Source of the DNA: a virus
Strand: one strand, 5' to 3'
DNA: 64,000 bases
IMG/VR virus record: IMGVR_UViG_3300044638_001843
Location: 5,067-69,066 of that record
The position numbers were made by a program, and so were the translations under genes. The notes beneath the pieces are model-generated. The model searched no databases and was not told the DNA's origin. It was given only the letters and a program-made list of their open reading frames with translations. This document shows, in pieces, positions 38,075 to 61,828 of this stretch (position 1 is its first letter; every line of letters begins with the position of its first letter).

Positions 38075-38841
38075 AAGAATTTATTGCTTCAGTGTTGTTT
38101 ATTTCTATTATTTCACTTGTTAATTATTTATTCCCTTCAGAAAATCTTTGCTTCTTGCCTATTGCCCTTGGAGCTATGTCATTAGCTCAGGGTGTTATGG
38201 GTGGTATGGCAGCAAGTGCAAAAGCAGAAAGAGAAAATGAAGAAGCCCTAGCTAAATGGGGTGCAGCAACTGTACAGAAAGCTTGGAATAATTCTAAAGC
38301 TCAGCTAGAAGCCGTACAGCAGTTTGAAAACCAACTTAAAAAGAATAGACAAATATCCGAAACAGCTTTTGCTTATAACTATGATGCAATGGGTGCTGCA
38401 AAAGTTGCTAATACAATGAAGCAAGAACAAACATATAATCTTGCAGCCGCTCAAAGAGCCGCTTTAACTTCTTCTGTTGGTGCTAGAGGTTTAGCTGCTA
38501 AATCAGGATCTACTACAGCTATGTTAATGGCTCAAGCCAAGTCTTTGATGGAAGAAAATGGTAGACAAGAAATGGAATTTGCCCAGCAAGTTAAGAATAT
38601 CAATACCCAAACCAAGAATATGTTGAACAATCGAACAGAGAATGTATTTATTGCTGACTTCCAGGGTTATGATGCAGCTCCACAGCTACAGGATACTGGT
38701 TCTCCATTAGTTGCTGGCATTATGTCTGGTGTTTCTGGAGCATTTGGTGGTATGTTAACTGGTGCAAACCTTTCTAATGCTATGGGTAGTGGTGGTATAG
38801 GTGGATTGTTTGGTATGAGTGGTGGTATTTTAGGAACATAA
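38062..38841 (+). CDS. Internal virion protein (gp14-like)
   Basis: Ala/Gln-rich helical protein with Gly-rich hydrophobic termini; precedes large internal proteins; start uncertain. Confidence 0.65.
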   Translation: MGMVKEFIASVLFISIISLVNYLFPSENLCFLPIALGAMSLAQGVMGGMAASAKAERENEEALAKWGAATVQKAWNNSKAQLEAVQQFENQLKKNRQISETAFAYNYDAMGAAKVANTMKQEQTYNLAAAQRAALTSSVGARGLAAKSGSTTAMLMAQAKSLMEENGRQEMEFAQQVKNINTQTKNMLNNRTENVFIADFQGYDAAPQLQDTGSPLVAGIMSGVSGAFGGMLTGANLSNAMGSGGIGGLFGMSGGILGT

Positions 38842-38856
38842 ACCTGGAGGTTAATA

Positions 38857-41800
38857 ATGGCTATAGATCCTAACATTTTAAAAATTGGCGGTAACCGTGG
38901 TTTGAATTTAAATGTAACTCCAGGCTCTGTTGCAGAACCCGGTAGAACAATTGGAGGTAGATTCCAGGTAGGTGCGCCCCAAACAGCTGTTGGTCCTAGC
39001 GGAGATGAAGCTTTATATGCTAATCTTTCTATTATTGCTGGTGGTGTTGTAGACTCAGCCCAGAATATTGCACAACTTGCCGAGTTTAACAATAATGTTA
39101 GCTGGCAAGATTGGTACGCTGATAGTTGGGAAGGTGATAAAAGCAAAAGAAGAGCAATACTTGATAATACAGAATTAAATTCAGAAGAAAAAAGAAATCA
39201 ATTAATTAAGTTATTAGATGAAGCTCCCAGCAATGGTGCAAATAAAGCAAGAAAAGCACAACTTTATGGTGATTGGTTAGACCAAGATCCAGATTCAACA
39301 GGAATTTTTCAATCAGCCTATACTACCTTTCAACAAGAAACACTAACACTATCACCAGAAGATAGACTTAGACAATTTGAAACTACTTTTGGATACGAAT
39401 TATCTTATGGAAATGAACAAGCTGTTTCTGCCAGACTAGGATATGAAAGAGATGTATTAAATTTTAATAATGAGAATGCCATTACACAGGGTAAGCTAGC
39501 TTTAGAAAGAAATAGCGGATATGTAAATGATGTTTTAGATGCTATGCTTTCAGAAGAACTTGGTGATAACATACCAATGCAAGAACTTAGAAGACAAGCA
39601 GAAGCCGAAGGATCATTACCACAGTTTGAACAAACCCTCGGTCAGGCTCAGTTAATCAGAGAAAATCGAGCATCAGCAGATGTTATTCAAAGTGTTTTAT
39701 TAAGCAATCTTAATATTAACTCAAGCTCTGAAATCTTTTCTCCGTTTGATCAAACAATGTCTAACTTGATTACAGCTAAATCAACTCAATTGTCAAGAGA
39801 GTATGGTTTAAAAATGGCTAAAGCTACTGCGGTTCAGGAGGAAACAAATAAAGCTTATACTAGAATGTCATTTAGCCAGACTCCATTAAATGTAGATCCT
39901 AGTAAAAATGGAGCTGAAATAGCAGCTTTACTTGCAACCATAAATCAACTAGATGGCAAAGATCGCAACGAAGCAATGGCAGCATTAATAAGTTCATTAG
40001 TAACAACCTCAGAAGCAAACAGATTTAATTATAATCAAGCAATAACATTTAGCACTGATTTATTTATTAAGGTTTGGGAAACGGCAACACCATCTCAAAG
40101 AAGAATATTAAGCCAAATGGGTTTTGTTCCCACACCACCAGCAATTTCTCCTGAAGATTTAAAAAAGATATACGATCAACCAAGTTTTGCATCAACCAAT
40201 AGAGATAAGATTGAGCTTGCTGTTACTGGTGTTTTATCTTCTAATGATAGATTTGCAAAGGGTGTTTCCGAACAACTAACTGCTGCTACTGCTCCATTTG
40301 AAACATTGCAAATTGAAGGTCCTCAATCAGCTTATGGTTTAGCTGTTGCTTTAGATGCTACGGTTAAACAACTTGGTATGAGTGGCAATTCTCCAGCATT
40401 TTTAAGACTAGAAGCTTTGCGATCTAGTAATACAAGCAATAGACTACGGGGTGAAAATGGATTGCAAATCTGGACACTTGGTTTAGGATTACCTCCAGAA
40501 GACTATGAACTATTTATTGCAGCTAATACCGATGGTGTTGCTAGAACACCAGAAATGAATGCTGTCATTACTAAGTATGGAAAACTTCCTTCTTTAACAG
40601 AAGAAATGAAAGCTATATCAGACTCTGTATCCAAAGGTGATAAGCTAACTCAAAGTTTAAATAAAAAAATAAATGAAACCATAGATAGTGTTGTAAAAGC
40701 TGTAGCAAAAACGGGAGGACCTACTGTTACTGGTGTGTTTGACAAAAACCATTTTAAAGATTTAACTACAGCAGCCAATAATTTTCCTGAAAGATCGGGA
40801 GTTGTAGATAGGCTTGTACATGATAATCCTGCTTTAGGTTCAATTGCACAAAAAACTGTAGAAGCTGCTAGTAAATTTACTTATGGTAAAACAATAGGTA
40901 ATAATCAGTATAGTTTTGAAATACCTCAAGCAGCTAATGGAATTCCCTTACCAAAACAACTAACTGAAAGACTAAAAGAAATAGCGGATCTGCGGCAAAA
41001 AGAATTAGATGCCTTATTAAAAGAATCTCCAATTGCATACAAAGCTAAACTAAATGATATTAGGGCTGAACTCAATACGTTGGCTGTTCAAGAAATGGTA
41101 TTAATGGAAGCTTCTAACAATCCGTCTATAGTAGGAAACAAACCAGAAGAGTTAGCATCACAGCAAGCTGCATTAAGGCAAGTGGTAGAGACTACATTAA
41201 GAACTCAAGATGAGTATGCTGCTCTATTTAGATCAAGTAACATAAGTCCAAAAGAACCCTTTTTATCGCCTATCATGGGTGATAACGATGTTGCAACAAT
41301 TCAATTAGTTGATGGAGCAGGTAATACAAATACAGAAAACTATTCAAGACTTGTGTATAGAGTAACTAATGGAACGTCTGATAGCAATTCACAGTTTTTA
41401 CCAACATTACAAAAAGCATTTACAGCTTTGGGTTCTAATAATGGTAACGCTCAATTAACAATGGAAACATCAAAACAAGAAATGATGTATTTATTTGCGG
41501 TTGCAGATGGCATTGCAGCAAAAGCTACTATTGAGTCTAAAGGTGATCCTTATGTTATGTTACAAAGAGTACAAACTAGAATTAATCAACTCTTAGTAGG
41601 ATCTGATTTAAGTTCATATAGACCAACTCTTAGAAAACTAGTAGAACTTAAGTTAGCTGACAATCCAGAGTTTGGTAAAACAAATGGTGTTAGGTTTATT
41701 CCTAGTGATCCAAATGATACATTTGCTAGATTAACTGGCACAGCTAAAAAAACTTTAACAGATAAAATGACAGCAGAGCAGAGCAGGCTTGATAGAGTAT

Positions 41801-43215
41801 CTAAGTATTTATTTAAATCTTTAATGCTTCATACGGAAGATAACATAAGAGGTAAGGGAATGGATCTTACCAAGCTACCACAATCAACTTCATGGGGAGG
41901 GTCTGGTACGCAAGATTTTATTACTAATGCTGGTTTGTTAGCTCCATTTAATGTTAGAACACTTATAAACGATGAAGCATCTATTAGTATACGAGATGAT
42001 GGCAATGCTGTCTTGGGATATTGGGAACAATCTGGATGGAAAATTCCAGGTAATTCAGAAACAGAAAAACAAACATCTATTGTAGTAGCATTAGCTAATG
42101 CTTCTGGTATGCCTGTTAATGTTGATAAAGATGGTATTGTATCGTTGTATATGACAACCTATGATGATAGTAGAAATCTAAGTTTAGTAGAATTAACAAA
42201 TGATAACTTTGGATTCATTGTAGAAACCTTAACAGGATCTCTTTCTACTAATAGGGACTTTACTAATTTCTTAGAAGCTCACCGTACCGTTGAACCAAAT
42301 AGCACAAACCTAGTAGAAGTTCTATCAACTTGGCAAGACTATGATTCTTTCTTTGGTAGTAGTAGAGGAAATATCGTAATTCCAAACTATAGAAGTTATG
42401 AGGTTGGTTCTTGGAAGACTTTAAACTGGGGAACAGACCCAGCAATGGTAGCGGAATCAGGTAATATAATTATTCCAGCAGAGCACGAAAAATATAGAAT
42501 GCCTATGCTAGCTGTTCCAGATTCAATTCAAGCTGTTCCTGGTTCTTTTACTGAATCCAATACTATTGAAGAAAATAGAGAGGGTAATCTTCTTTTTGAT
42601 GATGAGCGTTATATTCCAGGCATGCGCGGCAAGGAATCTACCTATGCTACTATCTGGCTATTTGGAGAACGCTCTAAAAATAGATTAAGTGAAGCCGCCT
42701 TTAAAGAAGATTTAACAAAAATTATTACTTCAGCTTTAAGTGGCCGGGAACTTAATCCGTCAACTATAGCTAAAATTAATGATTCCGCTAGTAGACTTGC
42801 TGGTGGTTCAGATGCAAGATCAAAAACAAATGCTATGGTTTTAATGGCTGCTAATGATATTTTAGGTAGTGGGTTTAAAATACTACCAGATGATTTATTT
42901 GCTGTAGGTAATGGCATATTTAGTGATACTGCATCAAACAGAGATACATCAACATTTAAAATTAACTTTGGTAAAGATGCTAAAGTTACACAACTAGTTT
43001 CAACAGAAGATGGAACACCATTTCCAGTTAATTATAGGATTCCCTTTGATCCTAGTATGTTTCCTGTAGAACTAACTGGTTCTTTTGCTAGCCAAATTCA
43101 ATTATCAAATATGCAAAGACAACTTGATTTCATTAGAGAAAACTTTATCCACGACCGCGGCCATCCTAATTATGGCCATCCTTGGATTCACTTTAAGGGA
43201 GACAGTAATAAATGA
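38857..43215 (+). CDS. Large internal virion protein (gp15-like position)
   Basis: GGAGG RBS; 1452 aa, mostly helical; synteny. Confidence 0.65.
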   Translation: MAIDPNILKIGGNRGLNLNVTPGSVAEPGRTIGGRFQVGAPQTAVGPSGDEALYANLSIIAGGVVDSAQNIAQLAEFNNNVSWQDWYADSWEGDKSKRRAILDNTELNSEEKRNQLIKLLDEAPSNGANKARKAQLYGDWLDQDPDSTGIFQSAYTTFQQETLTLSPEDRLRQFETTFGYELSYGNEQAVSARLGYERDVLNFNNENAITQGKLALERNSGYVNDVLDAMLSEELGDNIPMQELRRQAEAEGSLPQFEQTLGQAQLIRENRASADVIQSVLLSNLNINSSSEIFSPFDQTMSNLITAKSTQLSREYGLKMAKATAVQEETNKAYTRMSFSQTPLNVDPSKNGAEIAALLATINQLDGKDRNEAMAALISSLVTTSEANRFNYNQAITFSTDLFIKVWETATPSQRRILSQMGFVPTPPAISPEDLKKIYDQPSFASTNRDKIELAVTGVLSSNDRFAKGVSEQLTAATAPFETLQIEGPQSAYGLAVALDATVKQLGMSGNSPAFLRLEALRSSNTSNRLRGENGLQIWTLGLGLPPEDYELFIAANTDGVARTPEMNAVITKYGKLPSLTEEMKAISDSVSKGDKLTQSLNKKINETIDSVVKAVAKTGGPTVTGVFDKNHFKDLTTAANNFPERSGVVDRLVHDNPALGSIAQKTVEAASKFTYGKTIGNNQYSFEIPQAANGIPLPKQLTERLKEIADLRQKELDALLKESPIAYKAKLNDIRAELNTLAVQEMVLMEASNNPSIVGNKPEELASQQAALRQVVETTLRTQDEYAALFRSSNISPKEPFLSPIMGDNDVATIQLVDGAGNTNTENYSRLVYRVTNGTSDSNSQFLPTLQKAFTALGSNNGNAQLTMETSKQEMMYLFAVADGIAAKATIESKGDPYVMLQRVQTRINQLLVGSDLSSYRPTLRKLVELKLADNPEFGKTNGVRFIPSDPNDTFARLTGTAKKTLTDKMTAEQSRLDRVSKYLFKSLMLHTEDNIRGKGMDLTKLPQSTSWGGSGTQDFITNAGLLAPFNVRTLINDEASISIRDDGNAVLGYWEQSGWKIPGNSETEKQTSIVVALANASGMPVNVDKDGIVSLYMTTYDDSRNLSLVELTNDNFGFIVETLTGSLSTNRDFTNFLEAHRTVEPNSTNLVEVLSTWQDYDSFFGSSRGNIVIPNYRSYEVGSWKTLNWGTDPAMVAESGNIIIPAEHEKYRMPMLAVPDSIQAVPGSFTESNTIEENREGNLLFDDERYIPGMRGKESTYATIWLFGERSKNRLSEAAFKEDLTKIITSALSGRELNPSTIAKINDSASRLAGGSDARSKTNAMVLMAANDILGSGFKILPDDLFAVGNGIFSDTASNRDTSTFKINFGKDAKVTQLVSTEDGTPFPVNYRIPFDPSMFPVELTGSFASQIQLSNMQRQLDFIRENFIHDRGHPNYGHPWIHFKGDSNK

Positions 43216-45968
43216 ACCAGTACAACTTATTAGGTGAGTCCTTTAATCCTAAAGATTTTTCTTCTTTACTTATACCAGTAGTTAAGGATGAAGACAATGA
43301 ATTAGTAAGAGCAGATATGAAAGCATACAACGAATACTCTAATGATATTCAGTTGTACGATTATATTAACTCTTATATAAAAGAGTCTTACATTAAACCA
43401 GTAGATGAAAGTGCAGAAGAAGAAAAGAAGAAGCAAGCAGCTAAAGAGTGGCAATCTTCTTTAGGTAGAGATCCTAGTTCTACAGATCAACTTACAGATG
43501 AAGCTACAGTTAGAAGCAGAGAATTAAATAACATAGGTCCACTTGTATTTAGAGACAACGGTACTGGTAAATTATTATTCGGTCAGCCAGCAAGAGATGA
43601 ACTACAGTGGACGGTATCACAGGGTAGGGATAATGTAGAAGGTATCTTTGGGTTTGAGAACACAGCCCTTGGTCAGGTTGCTTTGCGAATGATGGGTTCT
43701 GAGTTTAATACAGATTCTTTCTATGAAGAATTAAACAAGCTTAACATGTCATTAGATCCAGAAAAAAGAAAGCAAACATTAGAAAGATTAAAGGGAATGG
43801 CAGGGTGGGCTGAGTATGGTGCTCTTGCTAACTGGGTTCAGTTTCTTCCTGGCGTAGATCCAGAGGATCGGTTTAATGCATCGGAAGAAGTATTAAATGT
43901 ATTTGGGTATAAAGGATTTAATGCATTTGGAAGAAACTATTATTCGTCTGATCCATTTGATTTAGCCGCTAACCTTCCATCTAATCCTAACTGGAACTAT
44001 AACAAAGCATGGGAAGCTTTTACTACAACAAACCCAGGCGCAGCAGCCTGGTTTGAAACAAATGGATTTAATGTTCAATCTAGATTAAAGAATACTAGAC
44101 ATGAATTAGATTTCTTTTATGAACTAAATGAATTTATTGATACAAATGCTTTCCAACGTATTATGTCATCAGATGTAGAACAAATGAGTTCTACTGGATA
44201 TGCTTGGAAGACAACAGTATTACCCCTAATTAGAGATTCGTTTGCTTCAGTAGATGCTCCTCTAGATATTGCAGTAACTGTTGGCCTTGGTACTTTAACT
44301 GCTGGTACTAGTACGGCTGCTTTGGTTGGAGCAAGAACAGCATTAATGGCTGGTAAAATTGGATCCACAAGTTTAAAAACATTGAATGCAGTCCAGCGAT
44401 TTAGGAAGGGTGCTGAAATTGTTACTTCTTGGTTACCTCATAATATAGCGGGTAGGTTTGCTAAAAACGCTACATCAATAACTGGTAAAACTGCTAGCTA
44501 TGTCGGAACCAGTGTTGGTAATGGTATTATTACTGGTGCTTGGTATAATATAAATAACCAGTTAAATAATATGGATAATGATGATACATATCGCTGGAGT
44601 ACAGAAAACCTAGCTCACGATATTGCATTAGAAATAGTTGGTGAACTTGGATTGGGTGGTGCAGCCACTATGGCACAGGCTGGTGTCTTTAAGCTAGGTG
44701 GTTTAATAGACAAAGGCACTGGATCTTATATTGGTAAAGCAGCCAAGAAGCAATTTGAAAAGCTTCCAACAGAACTAAAAGAAGTACTAAAAGCTTCTGC
44801 ATCTTTAGGTAGAGTTGGTAACATGGGCGATATGAATAACTATGAATTACAATTATATACTGATTCAGTTGTTATGATGTATGCTATGCGTACTGCTGGT
44901 GTTATTGACCCAAAAAATCCAACCCTAAACTTTAGAACAGCAGCTGCTTGGGGTGTAGCTACTAGTAGACTAAGTGCAGAAAAAGCCAACACCACCTTGA
45001 AAACAGCCAAAGAAGAGTTTGCTAGAAAGAAAAAAGAACTGCAAGATAGTGGGTCTACTGAAGTATTAACAGATGAAGATCAAGATATGTATGTATCTAA
45101 TATGTTATTATCTGCTATGCTTAGTGATTCTAGAGTTAATCCAGATACACAGGAAAGAATCTTTAATCTCTGGAACAGCATTGAACGTGAGCAATTTAAT
45201 CGTGAGTTTAGAAGTACTCCAGAAATTGAAACCAAACAAAAAGAAATATCAGACTTAGAAGATCAAAAACTAGATCTTGTAGAACAACTAGCCAAAAGAT
45301 CAAAAAAGATTTCTCAAGTAGAAAAAGATATTCTTCAAGTAGAAATAGATGATAGGACTGCTAAGATTGCTATTAAAACTTCAGAACTAGAAACATTACA
45401 GAGTTCAGTTAAGACAGTAGAAAACATGTCAGCAGAAGAGTTAGCTACAAAGCTTTACGAATGGCGTAAAGGTAAAAGAGAAAGAGTTAAAACTTTATTG
45501 GGTTTAATCAATCCATCAGCAACTGTAGCTGCAACAACTGAACTACTATCTCCCGAAGAAATGCAACAAGTTGCTACTGACTTAGGTGCTTCAGCTCCAG
45601 AAGTAATACAAGCAATGGCAGAATCTGAAGTAGAGTCCGGCCTTCCCCGTGATCTTGGTGTGGCCACAGCTGGGGCTTTAAGCGTTGCTGCGGCTTCTGT
45701 TAGCCAACCAGCAGCACCAGCAATGGAAGCCGCTCCCGTGGCTGAAGTAGTTCCAGAAGTTGAAGCTGCCCCCGTAACAGAAGCAGCTCCAATAACAGAA
45801 GAAGCTGCTGAAATTGTAACAGCTGAACCTGCTGTAGCACCTTCAACCGAGGTTATAGAAGCTACCCCAGAAGCCGTACTTACTGAGATTATTGGTAGAC
45901 TAAAGAGTATTGATAGAGTATATCTATTCAATAATATATTACAAAAATACAAAGACGTATGTAAATAA
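43212..45968 (+). CDS. Internal virion protein with hydrophobic Gly/Ala segments, coiled coil and EAAP-rich tail
   Basis: 918 aa; IAVTVGLGTLTAGTSTAALVG segment; C-terminal EAAPV-type repeats. Confidence 0.65.
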   Translation: MNQYNLLGESFNPKDFSSLLIPVVKDEDNELVRADMKAYNEYSNDIQLYDYINSYIKESYIKPVDESAEEEKKKQAAKEWQSSLGRDPSSTDQLTDEATVRSRELNNIGPLVFRDNGTGKLLFGQPARDELQWTVSQGRDNVEGIFGFENTALGQVALRMMGSEFNTDSFYEELNKLNMSLDPEKRKQTLERLKGMAGWAEYGALANWVQFLPGVDPEDRFNASEEVLNVFGYKGFNAFGRNYYSSDPFDLAANLPSNPNWNYNKAWEAFTTTNPGAAAWFETNGFNVQSRLKNTRHELDFFYELNEFIDTNAFQRIMSSDVEQMSSTGYAWKTTVLPLIRDSFASVDAPLDIAVTVGLGTLTAGTSTAALVGARTALMAGKIGSTSLKTLNAVQRFRKGAEIVTSWLPHNIAGRFAKNATSITGKTASYVGTSVGNGIITGAWYNINNQLNNMDNDDTYRWSTENLAHDIALEIVGELGLGGAATMAQAGVFKLGGLIDKGTGSYIGKAAKKQFEKLPTELKEVLKASASLGRVGNMGDMNNYELQLYTDSVVMMYAMRTAGVIDPKNPTLNFRTAAAWGVATSRLSAEKANTTLKTAKEEFARKKKELQDSGSTEVLTDEDQDMYVSNMLLSAMLSDSRVNPDTQERIFNLWNSIEREQFNREFRSTPEIETKQKEISDLEDQKLDLVEQLAKRSKKISQVEKDILQVEIDDRTAKIAIKTSELETLQSSVKTVENMSAEELATKLYEWRKGKRERVKTLLGLINPSATVAATTELLSPEEMQQVATDLGASAPEVIQAMAESEVESGLPRDLGVATAGALSVAAASVSQPAAPAMEAAPVAEVVPEVEAAPVTEAAPITEEAAEIVTAEPAVAPSTEVIEATPEAVLTEIIGRLKSIDRVYLFNNILQKYKDVCK

Positions 45969-45979
45969 GGAGAATACAA

Positions 45980-48900
45980 ATGGGCAAATGCAGCGAAGAG
46001 GTTTTAAACAAGATACGAGAAGAACTAAAGTCAAGTGGTGCAGAACCTGAAACAATTAATACTGTTGTTTCTTTATTTGAAAAGTCTGTTGAAACCGATG
46101 CATCTGCCGACTTGGTATCAAAAACCCTCACTAATTCTTTATTTACAACTTCAGATATTGAGAAGCTTAATAAACTAATTTCAAAGTTTAGAAGAGCTAA
46201 GGGTGATATAACTAAAGTTACTAATGACGATCTGTCTGAATTTACTTTCTTATGGTCTAAGTGGCAAGCTTACATGGAAGGTAAAGTACTTATTGCCGAG
46301 GGATTCAAAACAAAGGAAACTCTAGAACTAAAGAAAAAACTAAGAAAGCTAGAAAGTAAGTTCCTTAGTGAAGGTAAAATTAAAGAAGCAAGAACACTTA
46401 ATAGATTAATTAGAAAAATAGAAGCAACCGAAAAGCAGAATAGAAATGCTGGTAGATTTATTAGGAACATAGAGTTTGAAGGTAGACTAGAAAAAACTAA
46501 AGCTTTACTTAATGCTGTTAATGCGTCTTATGAATTTGAGGCTTCAAACAATGAGACAATTAAAAAACTAAACAATACTAGATTTGCTTTAGTTGGTGAG
46601 CTTCAAAGAGAAACAGACCCAGAAAAGAAAAAAGAAATTCAAAAAAAGATTGATGAGAATGTCAAAGAAACTACCACAAAAACAAATGAAATCTTATTAA
46701 GTAAGGCATTTAGAAAGCAACAGAAAGCAGACTCAACTGGTCAAATATCTCTATATGAAGCAGTTAAAGAACTTAGTTCTGAGATTGATAAGAACTCATC
46801 TACATACCGCCTTGCTCTAAATGAACTGATTGATTCTCGTAATACCCTAGAACATGATAAGCAATTGTTTGAATTAGCCAAACAGGGTATTCAGGTGCTT
46901 AATACAAGTAAGGCTTTGTTGGATGCTATTAGAAAAGAAAAGGGCGGCAAAGTTACTGTAGCAGAACTAAAAGCAGTAATCGGAGATTTGGGTGTTTCCA
47001 TTGATCAATTAATTATTGATACCCACAATAAAGTTAATCCAAAAGAAAAAGCAAAGTCTTTAAAGGGAAGTACTGAACTAGATAACAATACACTATCTTC
47101 TATCTTTAATACATTAGCTAATCTAGCAATAGATCAGGCTTTTTCAAATGGCATTGCTTTAGGTTTTGAGTTTTCACCAGAAGATCAAATGTTAGCAGAT
47201 AATCTAAAAGCAGCTAGTAATAACATGGATATTGAAAACGAAGACCAGGTAAATAACGATACTGTTATGCCAAAGGCTAGAACAGCCAGCAAAGCTAAGG
47301 AAGAAACCCTTAGTACTAGAGAACAAAAAATTAAAGAGTTTAAAGAAGGCACTGACTTTAAGAAGCTTTATGTAATGTTAAAGCAAGCCTTAGAGCGTGT
47401 AGAAACACTGAGAAAACTACCACAGTTCTCAGAGCATATATCAAGAGATATGGTTTTAGCAGCCCTAGGACCACAGTTACACCTACTAAATCCAGACATT
47501 TATTTTAGTAGTGCTGTTGTAACTGCAACATCTGTAGCACGACTAACAGCTCCGGCTCTATCTAGCTTGCCTGTACCGCCAGCATTAGAAAAAGCTTTTG
47601 CTAATTTAGGTATGGATCCAAGAGCAATTAAGGGTTTACCTGAAGTAGCAAACCCAGATGAATACGCAAGAAACTGGGATAGAGTTATTTCATTTGATAT
47701 TGAAACAAAGGGTGATGAGATCTTTATGATTTCTATTAGACACTCAGCAACAGAAGAAAGACTTGATCCTTCTATTGAACAGCTTGTTTCAAATCCAGCC
47801 AAAGGTTCTATTGGTAACTTTACTGCTTATTCAAAAGAAGATCTACTGCGATTCTTACGATCTTTAGAATTAATGCAAAATATGGGATGGAAGGTTGCTG
47901 GATTTAATAATGTTGGATTTGATTTAGCTTCTATAGCTAAATCTATTGGTACAGAAGAAGCATCAAATCTAGCCGCTCGGGTTGCTTTAAGATCATATGA
48001 TATGTACGCTTGGATTAAGATGCAATATGGAGCTACTGTTAATTTAGACAACCTTGCAACAGCAACACTTGGTCGAGGAAAGATTAAAGGCGTAACTGGC
48101 ACAAGTGTAGTAGATCTTTTACTTGCAGCAAAAACAGAAGAAGAAACTTCAAAGGCACTAGAGTATTCTAGAAACGACTCTGATTTAGTATTTGAGATTA
48201 TTGAAAACCTAAGATCAAACCCATCACGAAACCTTACTGTTAATGTAAACAATGTAGATAAGAGTACTGTAAATTTAAGTTTAAGTAATCCACTTCAAAC
48301 ATGGCAACTAGCTATTTTTCACAGTAATACAAATAGTAACTTTAATGGATTCTTTTTAGAATACAATGCAGCAGGAGTACAACCAGCAATAAATAACTTT
48401 GTTGGTGAATCTAGTAATGCTGAAAGAACATCTAGACTGCTATTTAATACAGAAGCAGTTAGAGATCAGTTGCTATTGCATATGTCTTTATCTTTAAGAG
48501 CAGATCCAGATACAGCTGTAGTTGGAGAAACTTTAATTAAAGAAGCCGAAAGACTTACTAAAAAAGAACAAGAAGTTCTTGTTACTCAGATGAAGTTAAT
48601 GAGAACACATAGGCAAGCTGGTATTGAAGCAAAGAAAGCTTTACTTGGTTCTGATGGAGAACCAAAGTTTATTCTTTCAATCATTGAAGGTGAACCAAAA
48701 TATATTGAAGCAACTACCAGTACAACAGCTGAGTCTCAGTATGAAGCAGCAGTAATTGAAGCATTTAATCAGTTTTACTTAGATATGGCAGGGGATAGAG
48801 TACCAGCCGATCAGATAGTTTCTCGGATGAATGAAAAGATTGTTGAGTATGGATTTAGAGAAAAGACTGGATCAGAAACCCAAGCAGACTACATTAAAGC

Positions 48901-51900
48901 TTTTATTAACGAAGTAATCTTGCCATCAGTTAAAGCAAAAGCTATAACAGACTTTGGTAATGGTAATACTGATTATGCTCCTGCTTGGAATGTTGGATAT
49001 GCTATAGCTCAGATTGCAATGGGTAGACGAGATGGTATTATGGATTCTAGATTTATTGAAGAGCAAGCATTTGTTACTCCACTATCTACAATGAATGACC
49101 TGGAAAACAATGCAAAGAATCTATCTGAGTCTATAAAAGTTAGACAACCACATAGAAAAAATGTATCTATGTTTGCCCCAATATCCCTTAAGCAATATGA
49201 AGAAGTATACAATGACTGGGCTTTACGGCAAAGAATAAACCATATTCTAAACGGTGATAGATACAAAGGATTGTCAGAAGAAGAACTACGAAAGAAACTA
49301 GCCGACATTCGTGGGGCTGAGTATATGCGTAGAGTTTCTGTATTAGCTAAGTCAACAACAATAATTCCCGATATTACCCCCACGGTAAATAACAGACAGT
49401 TATTTAATGAGCTTCCAACAATTGAAGATACACTAGATAGAACTCTAGAAACCTTACTAGACTTACCAGCAATTGGTGTTGCTGTAGTACATGACTCTGT
49501 ATTTTTAAGAACAAAAGTAGTTGTAGATAATGATGGTAAGAGTTTAAAATTCTCCAGACTAGAAGCATCACCTGGTGCTTGGTCTGCACGATCAATTATC
49601 AACGGTCAGCTTGTAGCCCAGTTAGGTTGGTATCAAACATATGGTATTACTGATGGTGCTATTAAAACATCGCTTGAAGAAACAGCTAAGGGTATTCAAG
49701 CTGGTAAACTGCAATTAAAGAATATAGATTATTTTGACTTTGACTTTAATGGTGTTCACCACATGTTAATGTTAATGTTGGCTTATAATATTCCAAACGA
49801 CGTAGGTACTAGAGGTGTAGCAAACCTTATAAAAAATCTAAATCTTTCTGAATGGTGGTCAACTGTAGATGCCAACAAGGATGACTTTTATACTCAAGTA
49901 TCTCTTCAAGTCCAGAAGAATATTGCAGAGCAGTATGTTAAACTATCTGAAAGAAAACAAACAGCACCGCTAACTAAAGATGAACAAGCTAAGTTTGATT
50001 CATTAGAAAAGTGGAATGCTATTTTAAACAGCATGGACGAAACAGGATCCAAGAGAACTTTTAGAGATTTCTTTAAGGCTGCTGTATTACCTCGTTTGTA
50101 TCAGGGCGGTATTCCTAGTATTTCACAAGCTCTATTTGAAAAAACTCAAGATCCAGAGTTTAAAGAAACATTCCCATCTATTGTTATTAACAATGCTGAT
50201 ATTGGTTTTTTGTTAAAGGATGCTGAGTTTAGCGGCGTTATTGGATTAATTAAGTTAATAGACGAAACAATAAATATTTCTGTCGATGGTAGAACTAAAC
50301 TAAAACAACAACTAGATGAGTGGAACCAAAAACTTTTCTACAAAGATGGTGTACAAAGACATCATGCAGTTCTTAAGGAAATGGGAAAGTCAACCGATTT
50401 TGGTCGCGGTATCATTGATGATACAACACTAACTAATCTTATCAATCTTCGTATTGATGCGGCTGCAAGAATGTTGGTAAAACCTAGTGATATTATGCAG
50501 TTTGGATCTTTAGAGTCAGCTATTAATAATAAGAAACAACGTCTAGCTAAACTGTGGGCTGACCGAATTAACGCGGGTCGAGAGTATGTAAGAACTAAGG
50601 GTGGTACTCTTACAACCCGTGGAGAATATATTAAGCTAGCTGAGATTATGGGTAGAGATCCCCAAGCTTGGAAAGACTTACCGTTACTGGCTGCTATAAA
50701 CACTGCTAATAGAACACCACTTAAGATTAGAGAAGAAGCTATTAGAGAAGCCACAGAAGAGTTTGGTGTTAATGTAAATGACTATCTTGGTAATTCTGGT
50801 AACTATCTTTTCTTCCAGAGTTTAGCCAGAGACTTGGCTGGTGGTCGTATGTACACAACACCATCCGGTATTTCATACCAGGGTCCTTCTTATTCTCAAG
50901 TCGCTACTCCAGCTCCTTTTGATCCAGCCGATGTAGACACTACAGCTTTATGGGAAATTGACGAGTTTTCTTTTGCTAGACTAGCAAGAGAAAATCCAGA
51001 AGAAGCCCGTAGATACATTACTCAATTAGTCCTACAGCAATATGAATTACGGTTGGCTACTGAGTATATGGCTAATGACTATAACGATAAAACTCTAGAG
51101 ACACCCGAAAGATTCCTAGAAGATTGGTCGCGCATTAGTAAAAAGGAAAGAGAATTCTATGCCAGACGGCGTAGTATAGAAACCCTAAGAACAGCTCAGG
51201 CAGAGGCTCAGATTGAATCCGTTGTTACACCCGGTGGTGCAAGACCTAACGCCAAGAACTGGATTAAAGAAGCTCGTAAGCGCGGCTTGCTATTAGAGCA
51301 GGGATTAAGATATCTTGCTTCTCCATCCCGAGTTATTGGGGATACCAGTAAAGCATTTGAAGAGTCTAATCAAAAAATGGGTATATTTGCATTTAGACCC
51401 AAGACTGCCGATATTGATATTACAGATCTACCTATTTACGCTTTAGCAGAATTAGCTATTGAACGCCGTATTGATAAAGAAAATGAAAACTGGGTAAGAG
51501 CAAGTAAGAAGAATAAAGCACCAAGTTCTGTAACAGATATTATTCCAGAACAGGCTATAGGGTACACTCATACAGTAAACCCAGAATCTTTACCATATGT
51601 TCCAAGAGAACTTATGTCACTGGGTTTACTTACTAATCTAACAGATGTATCAACTAAACTTGCCGTTGAGCAAGCTAGAATTCAAAGCAGACTTTATAGG
51701 TTTGCAAAGCAAAATGGATTAATGCATCTCTTACCGCGCGGTAGAGAAAACTGGGCTGCTGTTCATTTCATTAGAATGGCTCATGTCCGAGGTGGTTACC
51801 CACTACTAAGAAAACTTGGTAAGGTTTATAATGCAGATGAAAATACTTTAGTATCTGAATATAACTTAGGTGTATCAAAGTTCTTAACATCCATGTTTGA

Positions 51901-54900
51901 TATTATTGAGTATCAACACAATACAATGGATAAGGATGTAACACAGTTAGACTTTAATTACTTTGGTGGGTTTAATCCAAAGATGTTTAAGGGTATGCGT
52001 GGAAGTCCAACATACTACAATCTTCTTACAATGTTGTCTGATGCATCAGAACAACTAGGAAGTCTTAAGTATGGTCTTACTGTTTCATCAAGAACTAGAG
52101 TAGCAGGACCCGACTCGCAACCTATTGACGAAAACACAAGAACACTACCGGTAACCGTACAAGCTATGGATGCTGTTAACCTTGTGTTTATTCTTTACAA
52201 CTTAACAAAAGTAAAACAAGTAGCTACTGAATTAGTTAAAGCTAGAAATATTGCTGGTGTTGAATTTGATCCTGCTGGACAAGTAATACCTGAATCAATC
52301 CCAGCAAACGCAGCAGTTACATTGCTACCAGAAATTCTAAGTAGACCAGAGTTTACAGAAGCTGACATAAGATCCGTAGGGCTATATGTACTTTATAATG
52401 AGTATCAAAATACTGCTGAGCTTGTTGTTGATAAACCCACGGCTAATACAATGGATATTCAAACAGCCATTGGTCCAGTCCCACAAGTAAATGTTAATGA
52501 TAGTAAAACAAAGTATGCGTTCACACCAGAAATGTTAAACTCATTGTTACTTGCTTTAAGAAACTCTGTTGTACTAAACCAGGCTGAACTTGCTTATGCT
52601 ACTAATAAATCAATTGGTGAAAAGAAGTCAAACCTAGAGCGTGGCAATCTACAAAGAACATTAGAATATTACAATGGGGCTAGAGAACTAAAAGCCGATG
52701 AAGCTACAGTTTTCTCGGCTCTCCATGCTGGACTATCTCCACTGTATACTTTAGATGGTGGTATGTATGATGCCCGATATAATGTTCAGTATGAAATTTT
52801 AGATTCTATTAGATACTTAGCCAAAGAAAACTTTAATTTAATTTCTACTAAGTATTTAGATAGTCGATCTACACCGTTTACTGTAAAAGCATATGAACTA
52901 GCTTTGCTTATGCCACTTCAAAGAGCTATAGCAATTGCTGAAAATAACAATCTTAAGTCTGCTTTAAATACTATTAACAGTACTTTAAATAATAATCCAC
53001 AAGAGATTAGACAGCTATTACCAATTATTTCTTTGGCTATATCAAAGCCAACAATGGAACTAAATGCTATTAAAGCTCTTGTTGATTATACATTCAGTAG
53101 AGAAGGTATTTCAAAAGCCAAAGTTGATGCCCTAACTAGTGATATTCAGATTCTTTTAAATGTAGTTAGAAGCATTACAGATCCACAGTCTAATGAGTTC
53201 TATACACCAGTTAGAGCTTTCTTACAGCGGCTAGATGTACCAACTGATAAACTAAATGAACTAGATGCTACTGTTCAGTTTATTGCTTATCAGGAAGAAA
53301 GAGGTAAGAAACTAAACGCAGAACAACAGAATAAAGTTAGACTAGCCGTTTCTCACTCTATTAAAAACTTACAAGAAGATTCTCAATTAAGTCTTTCATT
53401 CTATGGAACTGGACCAAAAGAATCAGCTAATAAGTTTGGGAATGAAACAATATTCTTGTCTACATTTGTAAATTCAGGTGAACAACTAAATAATCAAATT
53501 AAGTCTTTAGGATTGGATGCACTAACAGAACAGATGTATAGAGCTATGATTGGATTTATTTTACATAAGCATCCAGAACTTGAAGGTCACTTGACTATTA
53601 GCATAGATGATGTTGAAGGAAATAGATTAGCTAAAATCCGTAAGGTTAATGATGTATTTAATATTGTCTTTGCTAAGTCTCCAAACACAATTAAAGCAGC
53701 AGTTGCTGGTAAAACAACTGAACAAGCTATTGAAGTAATAGCACATGAGCTATCCCATATTGCTTTAAACTATTCTAAGATTAGAGATAGAATTGGTTAT
53801 GAAGAAGCAATTGAAAGCTTAATGACAGACACCGGGCAAGAAGCAATAGAAAAAATGGTTACTAATGCTTTTGCTGGTGGGGTGCTAACTAGAAATGAAA
53901 TCACTAAACTAGTTTCTTACTATCAACAAAACTTGGAAGAAGCTTTGGTTATGTGGGGAAGCCAAATGCTTATTACAAGAGCAATGGGTAAAGATCGTGT
54001 TGAGCTAAAGGCTATAGAGGAAGAAAACAATATAGCTAGTAAGGTTAATTCTTGGTGGAAGAGAACCTTTAAATCTATTGAATACTTTGTAAATAATCTA
54101 GTTACATTCTTAGATGAAATGACTGGTAGTAGATTTGTTGGTGTATCAGACAAAGTAAACAGAGTCTTTAATGGATTCTTTGATGCTACTTCAGATCTTA
54201 GAATGGAAGACAAAGCCGTATACGATGATGTACTTGAAGAAAGTTTTATTATCTCAAATGCGGATGTATATTATAATCCTGGTTCAACATCTACTGAACG
54301 TACTGCTTATCTTGAAGAGCAAGAAAGAAATCAGAATCAGTACAGAAGATTAACCCAAGAGCTTAGTACACTGGATCCAAACTCAGCAGAATATGCAAGA
54401 GTTAAAAGAGAACTAGACTCTATTAGAGATAAGTGGCAAAATAATGTAGACCACTTAGGTATCTCTGATGAACTATACTATGATACATTAACTAGACTAC
54501 GCAACAGAAATGATGTTGTAGGTCGTGAATTTGATTATGCAGAAACAACAGAAGAAGAGATTGTACTAGCAGATCACATTATTAGAAAGCTGTCAGAGGT
54601 TCGTGGCAAGCGTGTCGATAGCCCAGGTACAGCTGCGTATCTAGCTAGACAAATGATGAATCTATTCTCAGGCACTGTGTCTATGCAAGACGATGGACAT
54701 GCAAGAAATAGATTAATCCAAACACTACAGAAGATTTCTACTTCTGTTTATCTTGTAACTGGTAATCAATCTGGCCAAACCTATAACTCTGCTTTTGGTA
54801 TTATTGTATCACTAGCGCACTTAATTGATGCCGAAGCACAAACAGTAGATTCATACTTTGAAGGTAACGGCGGATTAGATGGTATTAAACAAAACCAATA

Positions 54901-57900
54901 CCAAGTAAATCTATTGGTTAATCAAGTATCTTCTGTTTATAACCAAATTGTTTCAGAGTTTTCTTCAGCAATCCCAGTACCAGGCGCAACTAATAGATCT
55001 GGAGATATTATCCTAGAGTCATTTAGTTACCTAGCCAGTGGTAAGATTGATCCTTCATTTAATGAAAAGGAACAAGCTGCTATCCGTAGACTTGGAGATA
55101 CATATCGTAAGTCTTCAGAACTATTACATGGAATAATTACAGATGCTAATCTAAAAGATAGATCAAGACCATTCCATGATAGCTACCTTGCATTCAAGTT
55201 AGATATTGATCAGTTTAGAGAAGAAAAGAATAAAGCTGGTTATCAAACAAGAAGAACGCAGTTTATTCAATCTGTATCTTCTTTAATCAAAGCAAAACAA
55301 CTTTCACAGTTACAAGATCTTGATAGAGTACATCCGGTTACATTTATGTTGACTTCCGGGTTACCAACACTTAAGACATCTAACTCATCAGACATGTCTT
55401 CAGAACAAGAGTTTATTAGCTTTATTGAAAGAAACGCAAGTGGATCTACAAATCCAAATTCAGTAGAGGCTATTATATTTAACTCTATTCTTTCTTATGC
55501 TGCTCAGGTTAAAGAAGGATCTGTTGATTTAGCAACTAAAAAGGATCTCATTAGATCAGGTGCAACTGTTGGAAACTCGGTTGCATTGAAAGATTTAAAG
55601 AAAGGCTACAAGGCTTTACTAGAAGCAAGCACTAGTAGAACAGCTACTGTAACTGGATTGCTTACAGCACATACATCAGGTATTACCCCAGAACAAGTAA
55701 AGATAATCCAGAATGCAATAAAGAATACCATTACTTCTGATATTGGCAATCCACCCAATATGAAAGCAAAGCTTCAAGCTATGCGTTCTGAGAGATTCCC
55801 AATTAAGATCAAAGAAGAAAGAAATATCTTTAGTGCATCTACAAATACAATTCCAGAACTACTGGCAATAGACTTCTTAAATACTATTGGTTCTTCTGCT
55901 GCTATTACTTATAAGGATGACATCAACCTAACAATAGATGATATCTTTGGTGATAACTTTACTGAAGTACTTGGCGTAGAGGAAATGAGATCTATTCGTA
56001 GTGGCTTCTCCAGAGACATAAGATCTATTATTAAATCAATTGGATCTGGTTTAGGTCAGCAAGCTGTATCAAGTTCATTGATTTACAAGATGACTGGGGT
56101 ACAAGGGTATGATGTTCTTAAACTAATTAGGACTCTAAAGGCATATGTCGATGGAGCCAATAGACCAACTGGATCTCATATATCACAGGGTCAGTTTGAA
56201 AGAACCGAACAAGGTGTAAGAGCTAAACCCCTATCACAAGCAGAAGTCAAGTTACTTAGTGATGCCTTAACAGTATTGGAGCACAAGTATCAGTATATGT
56301 GGAACATGCGTTCTGCTGTATCTGGTGATGCCATTGGTAAGAATGCAATTAAGTTTACAACACAAGCTGCCCACCTAATTTGGGGTGGTAACCAGATTGC
56401 CGCTGGTATTCTTGTAGACTCTTCAGCAGCAGCCGTTGGTGCTATGATGCTAGGCGGTGCTGGTGGTGTACTTGGTTTCTATGGCAGATACATTGGAGAT
56501 GTCCTTAGATTAAGCTTTGGTGCATTTAGTGATGGATGGAAACAAACCCAGGTTCGTGGTGACTTTGCCGACTTTGCAGAAATACTTTGGGATACTAATA
56601 GTAACTTTGTTGAGTCATGGGAAAAGTTATATGGTGAAGTAGACTTTACTAGAAAAACCGGAAGACTGGCTAGTAGATTCTTAAGCTTTAACCAAGCACT
56701 AAATATGTCAACATCTATCTCTGCAAGAACAGCTTTGGCTAAAACTGCATTAGTACAACTCAATAGACAACTAAATACTAACAACCTAGAAGAAGTAAGA
56801 CGTATGCTTATTGATGGTGAATTGGAATCTGGTAACTATAGAGGATATGTAACTCTGATGAAAAAGCTAAAGAACAACGGCTTTAGAAAACTATCTTCAC
56901 CTGAAACAATTCTACGAATGAAAGCTGCTGGTATGTTTGAGGTTGGGGTTATCGAAAGCCTTAAGTTCTTAAAGCAATCAGGACCAATTAGTATTTCTCA
57001 GTATATGGACAAAATCCTAGATCTTGATAAAGATTTTAGCGTTAATGTAGATGGTGTTACCGTAAATAAACAAATGCTAATACAAGCTGTAGGAGCTATT
57101 GAAAAGTTCCAAGACTTGGCAGTTAAACAATCATTAATATCTTCTTCAGCTTTTGATGGTATAACAGATGATTCTCCACTAAGCAAGTTCTTAAGCTTGT
57201 ATAGATCATATTCAATTCTATTTGCTGGTCAGATGTTACTACGCAACAGTGCCAGAATGTCTACATCAAAGATGGCTGGACTCATGTTGGTATATACCAT
57301 TACCGATATTATGTATCAGACTATGCTTGCAGCAGCCAGCGGGTTCCTTGCTGGGGATGAGATTGAAAGATTACTAAGGGGTGAACCATCTGAAAAGGTA
57401 ATTAAACTTATTGCTAAAGCAGCAGTAAGAAACCCCATGTTTACTTTACAGGGCAACTTCTTGTTGGATACTACCTTGTTCTTGGCAGATACAGTTGCTG
57501 GTAACAAGGGATTAGAACCAGAGATTGCACCGCTAGGTGTTACTGCTATGGTACGATTACTAAAGAACCTAGCAACCAATACCAATACCTTTATCAATGC
57601 ACAGTCAGATGAAGAAAGAATTAAGTCAGCTTACAATGGTGGATTATATTTACTACCAATACTAAATCAAGCTTGGTTTAAAACTTTAATTAATCAGGGC
57701 TTAGCTACAGAAGCAAAGAAACAAACAATGGGTTCCTTTGATTCTGGAAGACGCAATAGTGAAGGTAGACCCATGAATACAGCATTTGCTACAGCTTATG
57801 CTGAATACGAAAACATGCAACTACCTACGCCAAACAATATAGCACAGGCTATACTTAAGTCATTGTATCAAACTGAAATGAATAACAAACTTCAGCAATA

Positions 57901-60805: not shown

Positions 60806-60843
60806 TCCCCCCTAGGTAATCCCTAGGGGGGATTTCTTATGGG
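60806..60843 (+). promoter_or_regulatory. Hairpin + TTATGGG element, copy 3
   Basis: TCCCCCCTAGG-TAATC-CCTAGGGGGGA-TTTCTTATGGG. Confidence 0.7.
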
Positions 60844-60867
60844 CATATTGCCCAGAAAGGTTTTGCC

Positions 60868-61176
60868 ATGTTAAAGAAACTGTGGAATCGGTTCCGTCAG
60901 CAAGACAAGTTGGATGCAACCAAGAAGGATCTGGAACTCGCAAATGATGAATTGCACCGGGTCGAGTCGCTGTGCTACATGCTTCACCACACTTTGCTTT
61001 ACTCAATTGCCTATCCTGAGTGCGAAGGCATTGATGACATGGTGGTGGCAGCAGATGGAAAGCTCGACAAGGCAAAGGAAGTGATTGCCTCTCACATTTC
61101 AGAGTGCATGAACTACAGCTCGTTCCATTTCGGGAATCCCCACACTGGTGATGGGTTCCCGCCAGATCACCTCTGA
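60868..61176 (+). CDS. Early hypothetical protein
   Basis: AAAGG upstream; 102 aa bounded by hairpin elements. Confidence 0.65.
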   Translation: MLKKLWNRFRQQDKLDATKKDLELANDELHRVESLCYMLHHTLLYSIAYPECEGIDDMVVAADGKLDKAKEVIASHISECMNYSSFHFGNPHTGDGFPPDHL

Positions 61177-61193
61177 CCCAAACCCGGGTCATT

Positions 61194-61231
61194 TCCCCCT
61201 AGGATAAAACCTAGGGGGATTTCTTTATGGG
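61194..61231 (+). promoter_or_regulatory. Hairpin + TTATGGG element, copy 4
   Basis: TCCCCCTAGG-ATAAAA-CCTAGGGGGA-TTTCTTTATGGG. Confidence 0.7.
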
Positions 61232-61288
61232 AAAGTTTATCTAGGTTTGTATCCCAATAACCTTAAACCTAGTATATGGAGATGTCAT

Positions 61289-61813: not shown

Positions 61814-61828
61814 TGCTCCGTTCTCCCT

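Follow-up and report, generated by a model that had tools for sequence, protein, structure and literature searches.

A giant virion-type protein of an uncultured T7-like phage carries a 3′–5′ exonuclease of the DEDDy subgroup within the DnaQ-like (RNase H fold) enzymes, as shown by its motifs and its modeled fold. The window, that is, the whole 64,000-nucleotide stretch of viral DNA analyzed here, encodes this domain as one module of a large ORF that also bears segments resembling single-subunit RNA polymerases (ssRNAPs) and an HExxH region (Table 1). The literature searched yielded no description of an exonuclease module joined to RNAP-like motifs in a phage virion polymerase.

Table 1. Features of the giant ORF and its upstream neighbors (window coordinates)
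Feature	Position	Strand	Evidence
Three cysteine-poor ORFs (259, 1452, 918 aa), terminase gene to giant ORF	38062..45968	+	Cys counts 1, 0, 1
Giant ORF (P0001), 4035 aa, contains the exonuclease module	45980..58087	+	ORF list, translation
Helical lead-in to exonuclease module, aa 530–565, LG...PE(F/V)xxP..W	47567..47674	+	Alignment A1, AF2
DEDDy 3′–5′ exonuclease core, aa 566–779	47675..48316	+	AF2 model, VIA, Foldseek, motifs
ExoI, D573-I-E575	47696..47704	+	D and E in 24/24 distinct relatives
ExoII, N643-N-V-G-F647-D648	47906..47923	+	D648 24/24, N643 22/24, F647 22/24
D674 of LRSxD motif, between ExoII and ExoIII	47999..48001	+	24/24 relatives
ExoIII, Y729-S-R-N-D733 (Y-x3-D)	48164..48178	+	22/24 relatives
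ssRNAP-like motif A (D1253..N1257 G1258..H1261), DxY (D1302, Y1304), motif B (R1362, K1366, Y1374, G1377)	49733..50152	+	Alignment, hhalign
ssRNAP-like 'AIN', T/DxxGR, PQG segment (D1618..G..R1623..Q1634), after motif B	50672..50899	+	hhalign
HExxH (H2589 E2590 H2593) zincin-like region	53417..54139	+	Motif conservation

Motifs, fold, and kinship of the exonuclease

The four strings from which the first-pass annotation had recognized a DnaQ/RNase H-like DEDDy domain with intact acidic residues, RVISFDIETKGD, KVAGFNNVGFDLASI, LRSYDMYAWIKMQYGATVNLDNLATATLGRGK, and KALEYSRNDSDL, are all present in the translation at aa ~570–735, with the D573 codon starting at 47696 inside RVISFDIETKGD. Alignment, AF2 fold, VIA, and conservation among 24 relatives agree on this assignment, and the tyrosine, rather than histidine, in the Y-x3-D of ExoIII places the domain in the DEDDy type. 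D573, E575, N643, D648, D674, Y729, and D733 are invariant in the 12-sequence family alignment (A1). In the broader set, N643 gives way to alanine in relatives L009 and L010, and ExoIII cannot be scored in two others, one cut off before the motif (P0010) and one whose match stops short of it (P0016). The fold extends past 48210, where the domain had initially been taken to end. Its lead-in, which AF2 folds into four short helices and in which L543, G544, and E555 are nearly invariant in A1, is found in all relatives, whatever the position of the cassette.

Orthologues of the giant share only 18–64% overall identity, and the retention of D573, E575, D648, and D674 together with the tyrosine across this range suggests selection on catalysis. 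Conceivably, the fold could have been kept as a 3′-end-binding or structural module, gripping the genome end during ejection, for example, without hydrolyzing it. Pol alpha, Pol zeta, Exd1, and Egalitarian, whose exo-fold domains we take to be inactive, are indeed found by title among the structural matches. Inactive exo-fold domains, as a rule, lack the catalytic carboxylates; here, all four carboxylates and the tyrosine are present in every full-length relative, and a purely non-catalytic role is quite improbable.

The AF2 model of the module is of high quality (pLDDT 88.9, pTM 0.88). Against 48,161 chains, its best VIA match is Pol epsilon (4m8o; Z 11.3, 172 aa, 3.6 Å), and 51 chains reach Z ≥ 8; model residues 36–250 match Pol epsilon, PolB, Nibbler, RNase D, RRP6, and Klenow at Z 10–11.3. 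Judged by title, the 50 VIA matches listed are exo-domain polymerases or DEDD-type nucleases, the titles of 5zo5 and 3cym being silent on this point. Foldseek matches are family-B polymerases throughout, and in the ESM Atlas the module lies closest to clusters of viral PF13482/PF10108 proteins (score 0.93). At the sequence level, the family profile matches the exonuclease domains of Pyrococcus/Thermococcus family-B polymerases in the PDB (best E 9.7e-5), with ExoI and ExoII in register and D674 aligned with the 'RIHFDL' of Pfu-type PolB. Together, these comparisons show the domain to be nearest to the PF13482/family-B-polymerase exonuclease type.

Under the Pfam curated cut-offs, the window's own exonuclease sequence falls short of both PF01612 (16.8 vs. 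23.6 bits) and PF13482 (13.4 vs. 22), but 7 of 12 relatives (P0006, P0007, P0008, P0011, P0013, P0015, and P0017) pass one or the other, so that membership in the DEDDy subgroup is assigned by transitivity and fold. A phmmer search of the PDB with the single sequence returned designed helical proteins only (E 0.2 and 1.7), and a homologue search with aa 500–800 of the giant returned just two proteins. NCBIfam gave nothing for the exonuclease domain, P0017, the HExxH region, or P0018, and for P0013 an unrelated L25/Ctc match alone, at 16 bits against a cut-off of 309.

With family-B exonuclease domains and the stand-alone viral PF13482 (RNase_H_2) and PF10108 (DNA_pol_B_exo2) proteins, the giant's domain shares the DEDDy set (DxE; Nx3FD; Yx3D), an intervening aspartate, and the RNase H-like fold. 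Unlike them, it has no DNA polymerase attached, being embedded instead in a 4035-aa virion-type protein, and it has two further elements, a conserved helical lead-in of 35 aa and a β-hairpin at the C-terminus.

The polymerase-like region

The exonuclease had been described as lying upstream of a virion RNAP domain. This placement is correct insofar as T7/N4-type motifs do occur downstream; the domain itself is less secure, as the motif order is non-canonical, motif C was not identified, and the fold model is of low confidence. We regard these segments as a candidate polymerase. Motif A, DxY, and motif B (aa 1252–1391) are invariant across 11 orthologues and match an N4-family profile (hhalign P 0.0016, score 46.8; best of reversed/shuffled nulls 15–26). 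The T/DxxGR segment (aa 1565–1640) matches a T7-family profile over T7 aa 312–441 (P 7.9e-4, score 48.4; best nulls 17–30). These profile–profile P-values are only ~1e-3. Since T/DxxGR follows A, DxY, and B, the order differs from that of canonical ssRNAPs (T/DxxGR, A, B, C), and this altered order is retained in the 5.2–5.8-kaa relatives; in a control alignment of T7 with N4, the motifs are collinear (P 4.6e-9). H1171-D1172 and D1428 are candidates for motif C. The AF2 model of aa 800–1950 has a pLDDT of 50.5 and gave no Foldseek match at E ≤ 1e-3. T7 RNAP (3e2e) ranks first by VIA, in the same register, with a Z of 7.0 over 98 aa that ties with unrelated helical hairpins. The phage also encodes a T7-like RNAP and a 625-aa small RNAP-like protein; hhalign of either single sequence against the giant family was non-significant (best P 0.11), and PF00940, searched against this phage's genome at E ≤ 10, matched the T7-like RNAP alone.

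The statement of the first-pass annotation that T7 RNAP and N4 mini-vRNAP lack such a domain is supported. Searched against full-length N4 gp50, eight partial Schitoviridae vRNAPs, and nine T7-like RNAPs, the exonuclease profile found nothing significant (best whole-sequence E 0.12; positive control 2.7e-79). Congruently, the words 'exonuclease', 'nuclease', and 'RNase H' are absent from the available text of the N4 ejection-protein paper (PMC13434306).

The co-occurrence of the two modules raises the question of whether the exonuclease serves the polymerase-like one, either by trimming or proofreading the 3′ ends of nascent RNA (backtrack rescue) or by resecting the entering genome end to provide a single-stranded DNA template. 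Both modules reside in one polypeptide in all 12 of the ~4-kaa giants found and in the 5,175–5,489-aa giants, motifs A, DxY, B, and T/DxxGR of T7/N4 type are conserved, and the N4 vRNAP relies on single-stranded hairpin promoters (PMC4496689). Arguing against such a partnership, the order of the exonuclease relative to the polymerase-like segments varies, one lineage dispenses with it, and both the polymerase fold and motif C are putative. End resection faces a further difficulty of polarity. A 3′–5′ exonuclease removes the 3′-ended strand and leaves a 5′ tail, and an RNA polymerase reads its template 3′ to 5′; on such a tail, it would run solely outward to the terminus, which disfavors the idea. 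In the window, as at the left of the full record, nearly all genes lie on the + strand, so that reading from a left end would proceed inward. No repeats occur at the ends of the record, with respect to which relatives' contigs are rotated. On balance, we consider service to the polymerase-like module unlikely.

A stronger version of this partnership would make the giant an injected, self-contained nucleic-acid machine, in which a rearranged T7/N4-family RNAP (A and B before T/DxxGR) is joined in cis to a working DEDDy exonuclease that acts on the 3′ ends of RNA or template. This is unlikely; if true, it would be the first case of a 3′–5′ exonuclease linked to a single-subunit RNA polymerase, and the giant, the 625-aa protein, and the T7-like RNAP would constitute a three-polymerase cascade for which host RNA polymerase is not needed.

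Proposed mobility of the cassette and probable packaging of the giant

The exonuclease occupies different positions among relatives. In the ~4-kaa class, it precedes the polymerase-like region, at aa ~520–870, in 12 giants (two of them cut by contig ends), and all 12 giants found in this class retain it. In P0012, P0014/L004, and L008, it is located at aa ~3270–3590, directly before the HExxH region, the other modules being collinear; across the 5,053–5,489-aa relatives, the polymerase-like segments come first and the exonuclease after. It is absent from L041, a complete 5825-aa ORF, and from L042. To judge from these sequences, the giant protein carries the exonuclease as an accessory cassette that can change place, and its variable position and absence from one lineage point to an accessory early-entry effector rather than an obligate proofreading partner. 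The retention in 12 of 12 ~4-kaa giants fits a functional link to the polymerase and an accessory role equally well.

The same variable position and absence argue against an exonuclease–polymerase unit of the family-A kind. An echo of family A DNA polymerases had been seen in the exo-then-polymerase layout; this likeness did not hold up, as the nearest matches are family-B exonucleases and PF13482. No PF00476 or other Pfam match was found in the giant, the phage's PolA is a separate protein, and a recent duplication of that PolA's own exonuclease was likewise rejected (BLASTP E 0.093).

Is the giant part of the virion? By analogy with N4, it is probably ejected with the DNA, given its cysteine depletion, its ejection-type gene block, and the HExxH region after the polymerase-like one. 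A single cysteine (C4) occurs in its 4035 residues, and relatives have 0–2 in 2000–5500 aa; for contrast, the same phage's replication enzymes contain 1–2.7% cysteine. N4 gp50 has none in 3500 aa, an absence that one report ties to passage through the tail (PMC3821669). The giant gene lies downstream of the portal, capsid, tail, and terminase genes, apart from the replication block. Immediately before it, the 259-, 1452-, and 918-aa ORFs, without a match in Pfam and PHROG searches, are likely ejection proteins, and the same four-gene block recurs in L002, L003, L006, L007, and L010. H2589, E2590, and H2593 are invariant in five orthologues, with HExxH in 8 of the 10 alignment rows that reach the region; a SprT-like match in P0006 is weak and under the cut-off (E 0.0022). 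In N4 vRNAP too, an HExxH peptidase domain follows the RNAP, as noted in the main text of the polyvalent-protein survey (PMC5512222).

A giant that stays unpackaged, with an intracellular role in replication, repair, or recombination and an ordinary DNA-metabolism nuclease as its exonuclease, would be in keeping with the full replication module of this phage, in which other DNA enzymes are at hand. The location of the gene among cysteine-poor giant ORFs and separate from the replication block, the gp50-like cysteine depletion, and the HExxH architecture resembling N4 vRNAP all speak for packaging instead, making an unpackaged giant highly improbable.

Beyond the window's own record, the family extends to at least 15 IMG/VR contigs. 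IMG/VR contigs include orthologues of 3950–4106 aa. As a whole, the giant matched no family in Pfam or PHROG searches and no PDB sequence; PHROG searches with nine pieces of it and with neighboring proteins found no family, and a five-sequence profile against the PDB gave nothing relevant. A Kyte–Doolittle scan detected one weak hydrophobic segment and no clear membrane anchor. Neither cultured phages (INPHARED) nor PHROGs contained a match to the exonuclease-bearing family, INPHARED having been searched by tblastn with the exonuclease and polymerase-like regions and with P0017, a stand-alone relative. This absence from cultured-phage collections marks the family as representing an unstudied infection strategy. 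One candidate relative, P0009 (457 aa), was excluded because it is a repeat protein whose eight matches all fall on query aa 123–151.

Proposed function and known systems

The reading we favor, and consider somewhat more probable than not, is that of an active nuclease in a packaged, N4-vRNAP-like polyvalent protein, serving as an accessory early-entry effector; DNA 3′ ends as its target are a weakly held guess. The exonuclease would be one module in a chain that runs from a long N-terminal region through the ssRNAP-like motifs and the HExxH peptidase-like region to an equally undivided, long C-terminal stretch. Packaged in a T7-like capsid and ejected together with the DNA, the protein would bring its nuclease into play in the first minutes of infection, removing nucleotides from free 3′-OH ends by a two-metal mechanism. 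Its substrate might be DNA 3′ ends at entry, in particular the phage's own terminus, which could be blunted or made a poor substrate for end-dependent nucleases of the host; host or defense nucleic acids are alternative candidates. Phage-ejected proteins decide the earliest minutes of infection, and to our knowledge, few enzymatic activities have been described in them: virion RNAPs of N4 and crAss type, transglycosylases, and Alt-type ADP-ribosyltransferases. An intact and strongly conserved 3′–5′ exonuclease on an ejected protein would add a new activity to those injected, posing the question of which 3′ end is trimmed at entry.

Among known proteins, N4 gp50 (Schitoviridae) resembles the giant in size (3500 vs. 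4035 aa), in being free or nearly free of cysteine, in its location beside large ejection-protein genes, and in the presence of ssRNAP-like motifs A, B, and T/DxxGR, followed by an HExxH region and a long C-terminal part. It differs in lacking an exonuclease domain, and it is in the giant that T/DxxGR comes after motif B and motif C was not identified. The polyvalent proteins, as portrayed in the main text of their survey (Iyer, Burroughs, Anand, de Souza, & Aravind, 2017; PMC5512222), are likewise multidomain proteins of more than 2000 aa in a packaging/structural gene context, with a zincin-like HExxH (a likeness at the motif level here), an N4-type polymerase module (a candidate here), and variable accessory enzymatic cassettes. 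In that main text, 'RNase H' and 'DEDD' do not occur and 'exonuclease' appears a single time, among the references; it therefore describes no DEDD exonuclease cassette, the 131-domain inventory being placed in the supplement, outside that text.

The phage hosting the giant is unlike N4 in having a T7-like portal, capsid, nozzle, and terminase along with its T7-like RNAP. The family combines a T7-like virion and replication module with an N4-like giant polymerase-type protein. Its likeness to the T7 core proteins gp14, gp15, and gp16 is by position only, as large, presumably ejected proteins encoded in the structural region; no sequence similarity of the giant block to the three was detected, and T7 gp16 is a 1318-aa protein that has a transglycosylase and not nuclease or polymerase motifs. 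Unlike the T7 core proteins, the block of the giant follows the terminase gene.

The exonuclease domain and its relatives

The DEDDy 3′–5′ exonuclease module lies inside a single ORF encoding a 4035-aa protein, hereafter the giant protein, to which residue numbers refer; the motifs quoted for it in the first-pass annotation are all found at their places in the translation. As a single sequence, the module matches Pfam family PF01612 only with an E value of 0.0064 and 16.8 bits, under the cut-off of 23.6. An exhaustive HMMER search over 1.84 billion representatives (E ≤ 1e-3) found 15 proteins, the majority of them giants of 2032–5489 aa, and of the 12 relatives scanned, 7 score above the curated threshold for PF13482 or PF01612. 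A repeat protein, P0009, was dropped as a relative. The 12-row alignment of the region takes in the window sequence, parts of ten relatives and a further protein, P0017, leaving out P0002 (98% identical), the fragments P0004 and P0010, P0009, and P0016; D573, E575, N643, D648, D674, Y729, and D733 are invariant in it. The homologues collected gave 25 matches, of which 24 are distinct; all 24 have the four carboxylates, and 22 have the tyrosine and last aspartate, both exceptions being matches that stop ahead of motif III. The domain is thus real, of the DEDDy type, and keeps its catalytic residue set complete among orthologues that share just 18–64% overall identity. Exonuclease-fold domains without activity usually have lost their carboxylates, and the present one is probably active.

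Structural comparison bears out the RNase H-like fold that had been proposed. An AlphaFold2 model built with the 12-row alignment (pLDDT 88.9, pTM 0.88) matches DEDD-type exonucleases in a VIA-align comparison against 48,161 chains, 51 of which reach Z ≥ 8: Pol epsilon aligns with Z 11.3, the highest value, over 172 aa at 3.6 Å, and the other chains at this level include archaeal PolB, Nibbler, RNase D, RRP6, Klenow, WRN, T7 DNA polymerase, and Pol III epsilon. Foldseek returned family-B polymerases only, with one match at E ≤ 1e-3 (1wn7, 4.3e-4). Searched against the PDB, the alignment profile matched Pfu/KOD-type family-B polymerases over ExoI and ExoII, with a best E value of 9.7e-5, and T7 DNA polymerase weakly. 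In the ESM Atlas, the exonuclease domain has as its neighbours viral proteins of PF13482/PF10108, about 190–250 aa long.

Polymerase-like and other regions of the giant protein

Downstream of the exonuclease, eleven orthologues of the giant protein share three invariant segments, D1253-x4-G1258-x-H1260, D1302-x-Y1304, and R1362-x3-K1366-x7-Y1374-x2-G1377, which in profile alignments line up with motif A, the DxY element, and motif B of the N4 and T7 RNA polymerases (RNAPs). A Schitoviridae mini-vRNAP profile (9 sequences) aligns its DxY-to-motif-B stretch to residues 1300–1391 (P 0.0016, score 46.8), while a T7-like RNAP profile (9 sequences) places its "AIN", D-x-x-G-R, PQG stretch (T7 residues 312–441) on residues 1565–1640 (P 7.9e-4, score 48.4) and its motif A-to-B stretch on residues 1252–1387 (P 0.09). 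As a control, the T7 and N4 profiles are collinear (P 4.6e-9). The giant alignment in reverse, and eight versions of it with shuffled columns, gave best scores of only 15–30. By profile comparison, ssRNAP-type segments are thus present in the giant protein. The T/DxxGR segment follows motif B, a non-canonical order shared by distant relatives, and could reflect a rearranged palm and fingers. Motif C was not identified in the giant protein; VAVVH1171-D1172-SVF and D1428 are candidates. An AlphaFold2 model of residues 800–1950 reached a pLDDT of just 50.5 and found no match in Foldseek; in VIA the top-ranked chain was T7 RNAP, with the register expected (model 503–621 versus T7 569–686), but its Z of 7.0 ties with unrelated helical hairpins. 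For these reasons the region is called polymerase-like, short of a proven virion RNAP. T7/N4-type segments are nonetheless found where the first-pass annotation placed a virion RNAP domain, downstream of the exonuclease.

Further features recall N4. The HExxH region resembles the zincin peptidase region that follows the polymerase in N4 vRNAP; the first histidine is lost in two relatives (loci L009 and L010). The giant protein has a single, invariant cysteine, its relatives (2000–5500 aa) have 0–2, and of its neighbours the 1452-aa protein has none and the 918-aa protein one, whereas replication enzymes of the same phage contain 1–2.7% cysteine. N4 gp50 lacks cysteine over its entire 3500 aa, a trait tied in the literature to passage via the tail and periplasm (PMC3821669).

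Features of the window
Feature	Position	Strand	Remarks
T7-type RNA polymerase	2–2326		Pfam, E 2e-83
Three cysteine-poor ORFs (259, 1452, 918 aa)	38062–45968	+	ahead of the giant gene; block kept in all relatives with sufficient flank
Giant protein ORF, 4035 aa	45980–58087	+	
Cys4	45989–45991	+	in invariant N-terminal MGKC (or near variant), kept by relatives of about 4 kaa
Exonuclease core, aa 566–779	47675–48316	+	
ssRNAP-like segments, aa 1252–1640	49733–50899	+	motif A, DxY, B ahead of "AIN", T/DxxGR, PQG
HExxH (H2589, E2590, H2593)	53744–53758	+	followed after some 60 aa by a conserved Glu; present in 8 of 10 alignment rows
P0018, 625 aa	58914–60791	+	by eye DRRGGRFY, GYDAHAQGP, KNVLTVTNYTG, TRHDA: canonical T/DxxGR-A-B-C order

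A movable cassette and its possible role

Segment HMMs from the family of about 4 kaa were used to map modules. In P0014 (locus L004) and at locus L008, the polymerase-like, HExxH, and C-terminal modules keep the order of that family, with the exonuclease at residues of about 3320–3590, directly ahead of the HExxH region; in P0012 it is likewise late (3271–3518). A second IMG/VR search, made with the polymerase-like region and hence independent of the exonuclease, yielded 14 loci from 43 pattern matches, seven being contigs that the exonuclease had already brought up. Five of the seven new loci carry the exonuclease at residues of about 520–820. The complete 5825-aa ORF at L041 and locus L042 have the other modules and no exonuclease, even at E < 1 or by motif regex. 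On this distribution the exonuclease is a movable cassette. As had been stated earlier, the N4 and T7 enzymes lack it: its profile has no significant match in N4 gp50, 8 partial Schitoviridae vRNAPs, or 9 T7-like RNAPs. By sequence comparison, it was not copied recently from the exonuclease of the PolA that the phage itself encodes.

Because its position varies and it is missing from one lineage, we take the exonuclease to be an early-entry effector, an accessory part of a polyvalent protein and not a proofreading partner. It would be carried into the cell aboard an ejected protein and would hydrolyse 3′-terminal nucleotides by two-metal catalysis. The first-pass annotation suggested that it could resect the entering genome end to expose hairpin promoters. 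Standard enzymology suggests a polarity problem: what remains after 3′–5′ degradation is a 5′ tail, and since an RNA polymerase reads its template 3′ to 5′, transcription on the tail would only run off the end. In the first 5 kb of the record and almost throughout the window, coding is on the + strand; the record's ends need not be the physical ends of the genome, and relatives' contigs are rotated relative to this record. Candidate targets of the early-entry effector are the phage terminus, host or defence DNA, and RNA.

The DEDDy exonuclease fold is known; its setting in the giant protein is new. Exonuclease, nuclease, and RNase H are absent as terms from the available text of an N4 ejection-protein paper (PMC13434306); the main text of a polyvalent-protein paper lacks RNase H and DEDD and has "exonuclease" in the reference list only (PMC5512222). 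Full-text literature searches turned up no description of ejection or internal virion proteins with an exonuclease, nor of phages with both N4-like and T7-like RNAPs.

Genome setting

The source record (69,066 bp in IMG/VR, of which the window is bases 5067–69066) is rated complete by CheckV. Judged by gene content, the phage is T7-like. Beside the T7-type RNAP, Pfam identifies a T7-type primase–helicase, family-A DNA polymerase, 5′–3′ exonuclease, and class II ribonucleotide reductase, together with T7-type portal, scaffold, capsid, tail tube, nozzle, fibre N-terminus, and terminase. Among cultured phages, the terminase matches 2701 records, each of them Autographiviridae-like and below 40% identity. 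Downstream of its gene, the ORFs of 259, 1452, 918, and 4035 aa have no family in Pfam or PHROG. The first three products are likely ejection proteins; the 259-aa protein has two hydrophobic segments near its N-terminus, and similarity of the three to T7 gp14–16 was not detected.

P0018, the 625-aa product, is probably a second, small ssRNAP, close to N4 RNAPII in its combined size. It has no match of its own in Pfam, PHROG, or NCBIfam, but ORFs of 620–629 aa on two related contigs do pass PF00940, with E values of 5e-10 and 4e-8. Elsewhere, a 1299-aa tail-region ORF (19989–23888, +) bears RCC1 repeats (PF13540, E 1.6e-12); its PHROG match, to a tail protein, is weak. Near the right end, ORFs of 126, 155, 185, and 52 aa (60812–62901) lie on the minus strand, the rest of the genome being otherwise on the plus strand.
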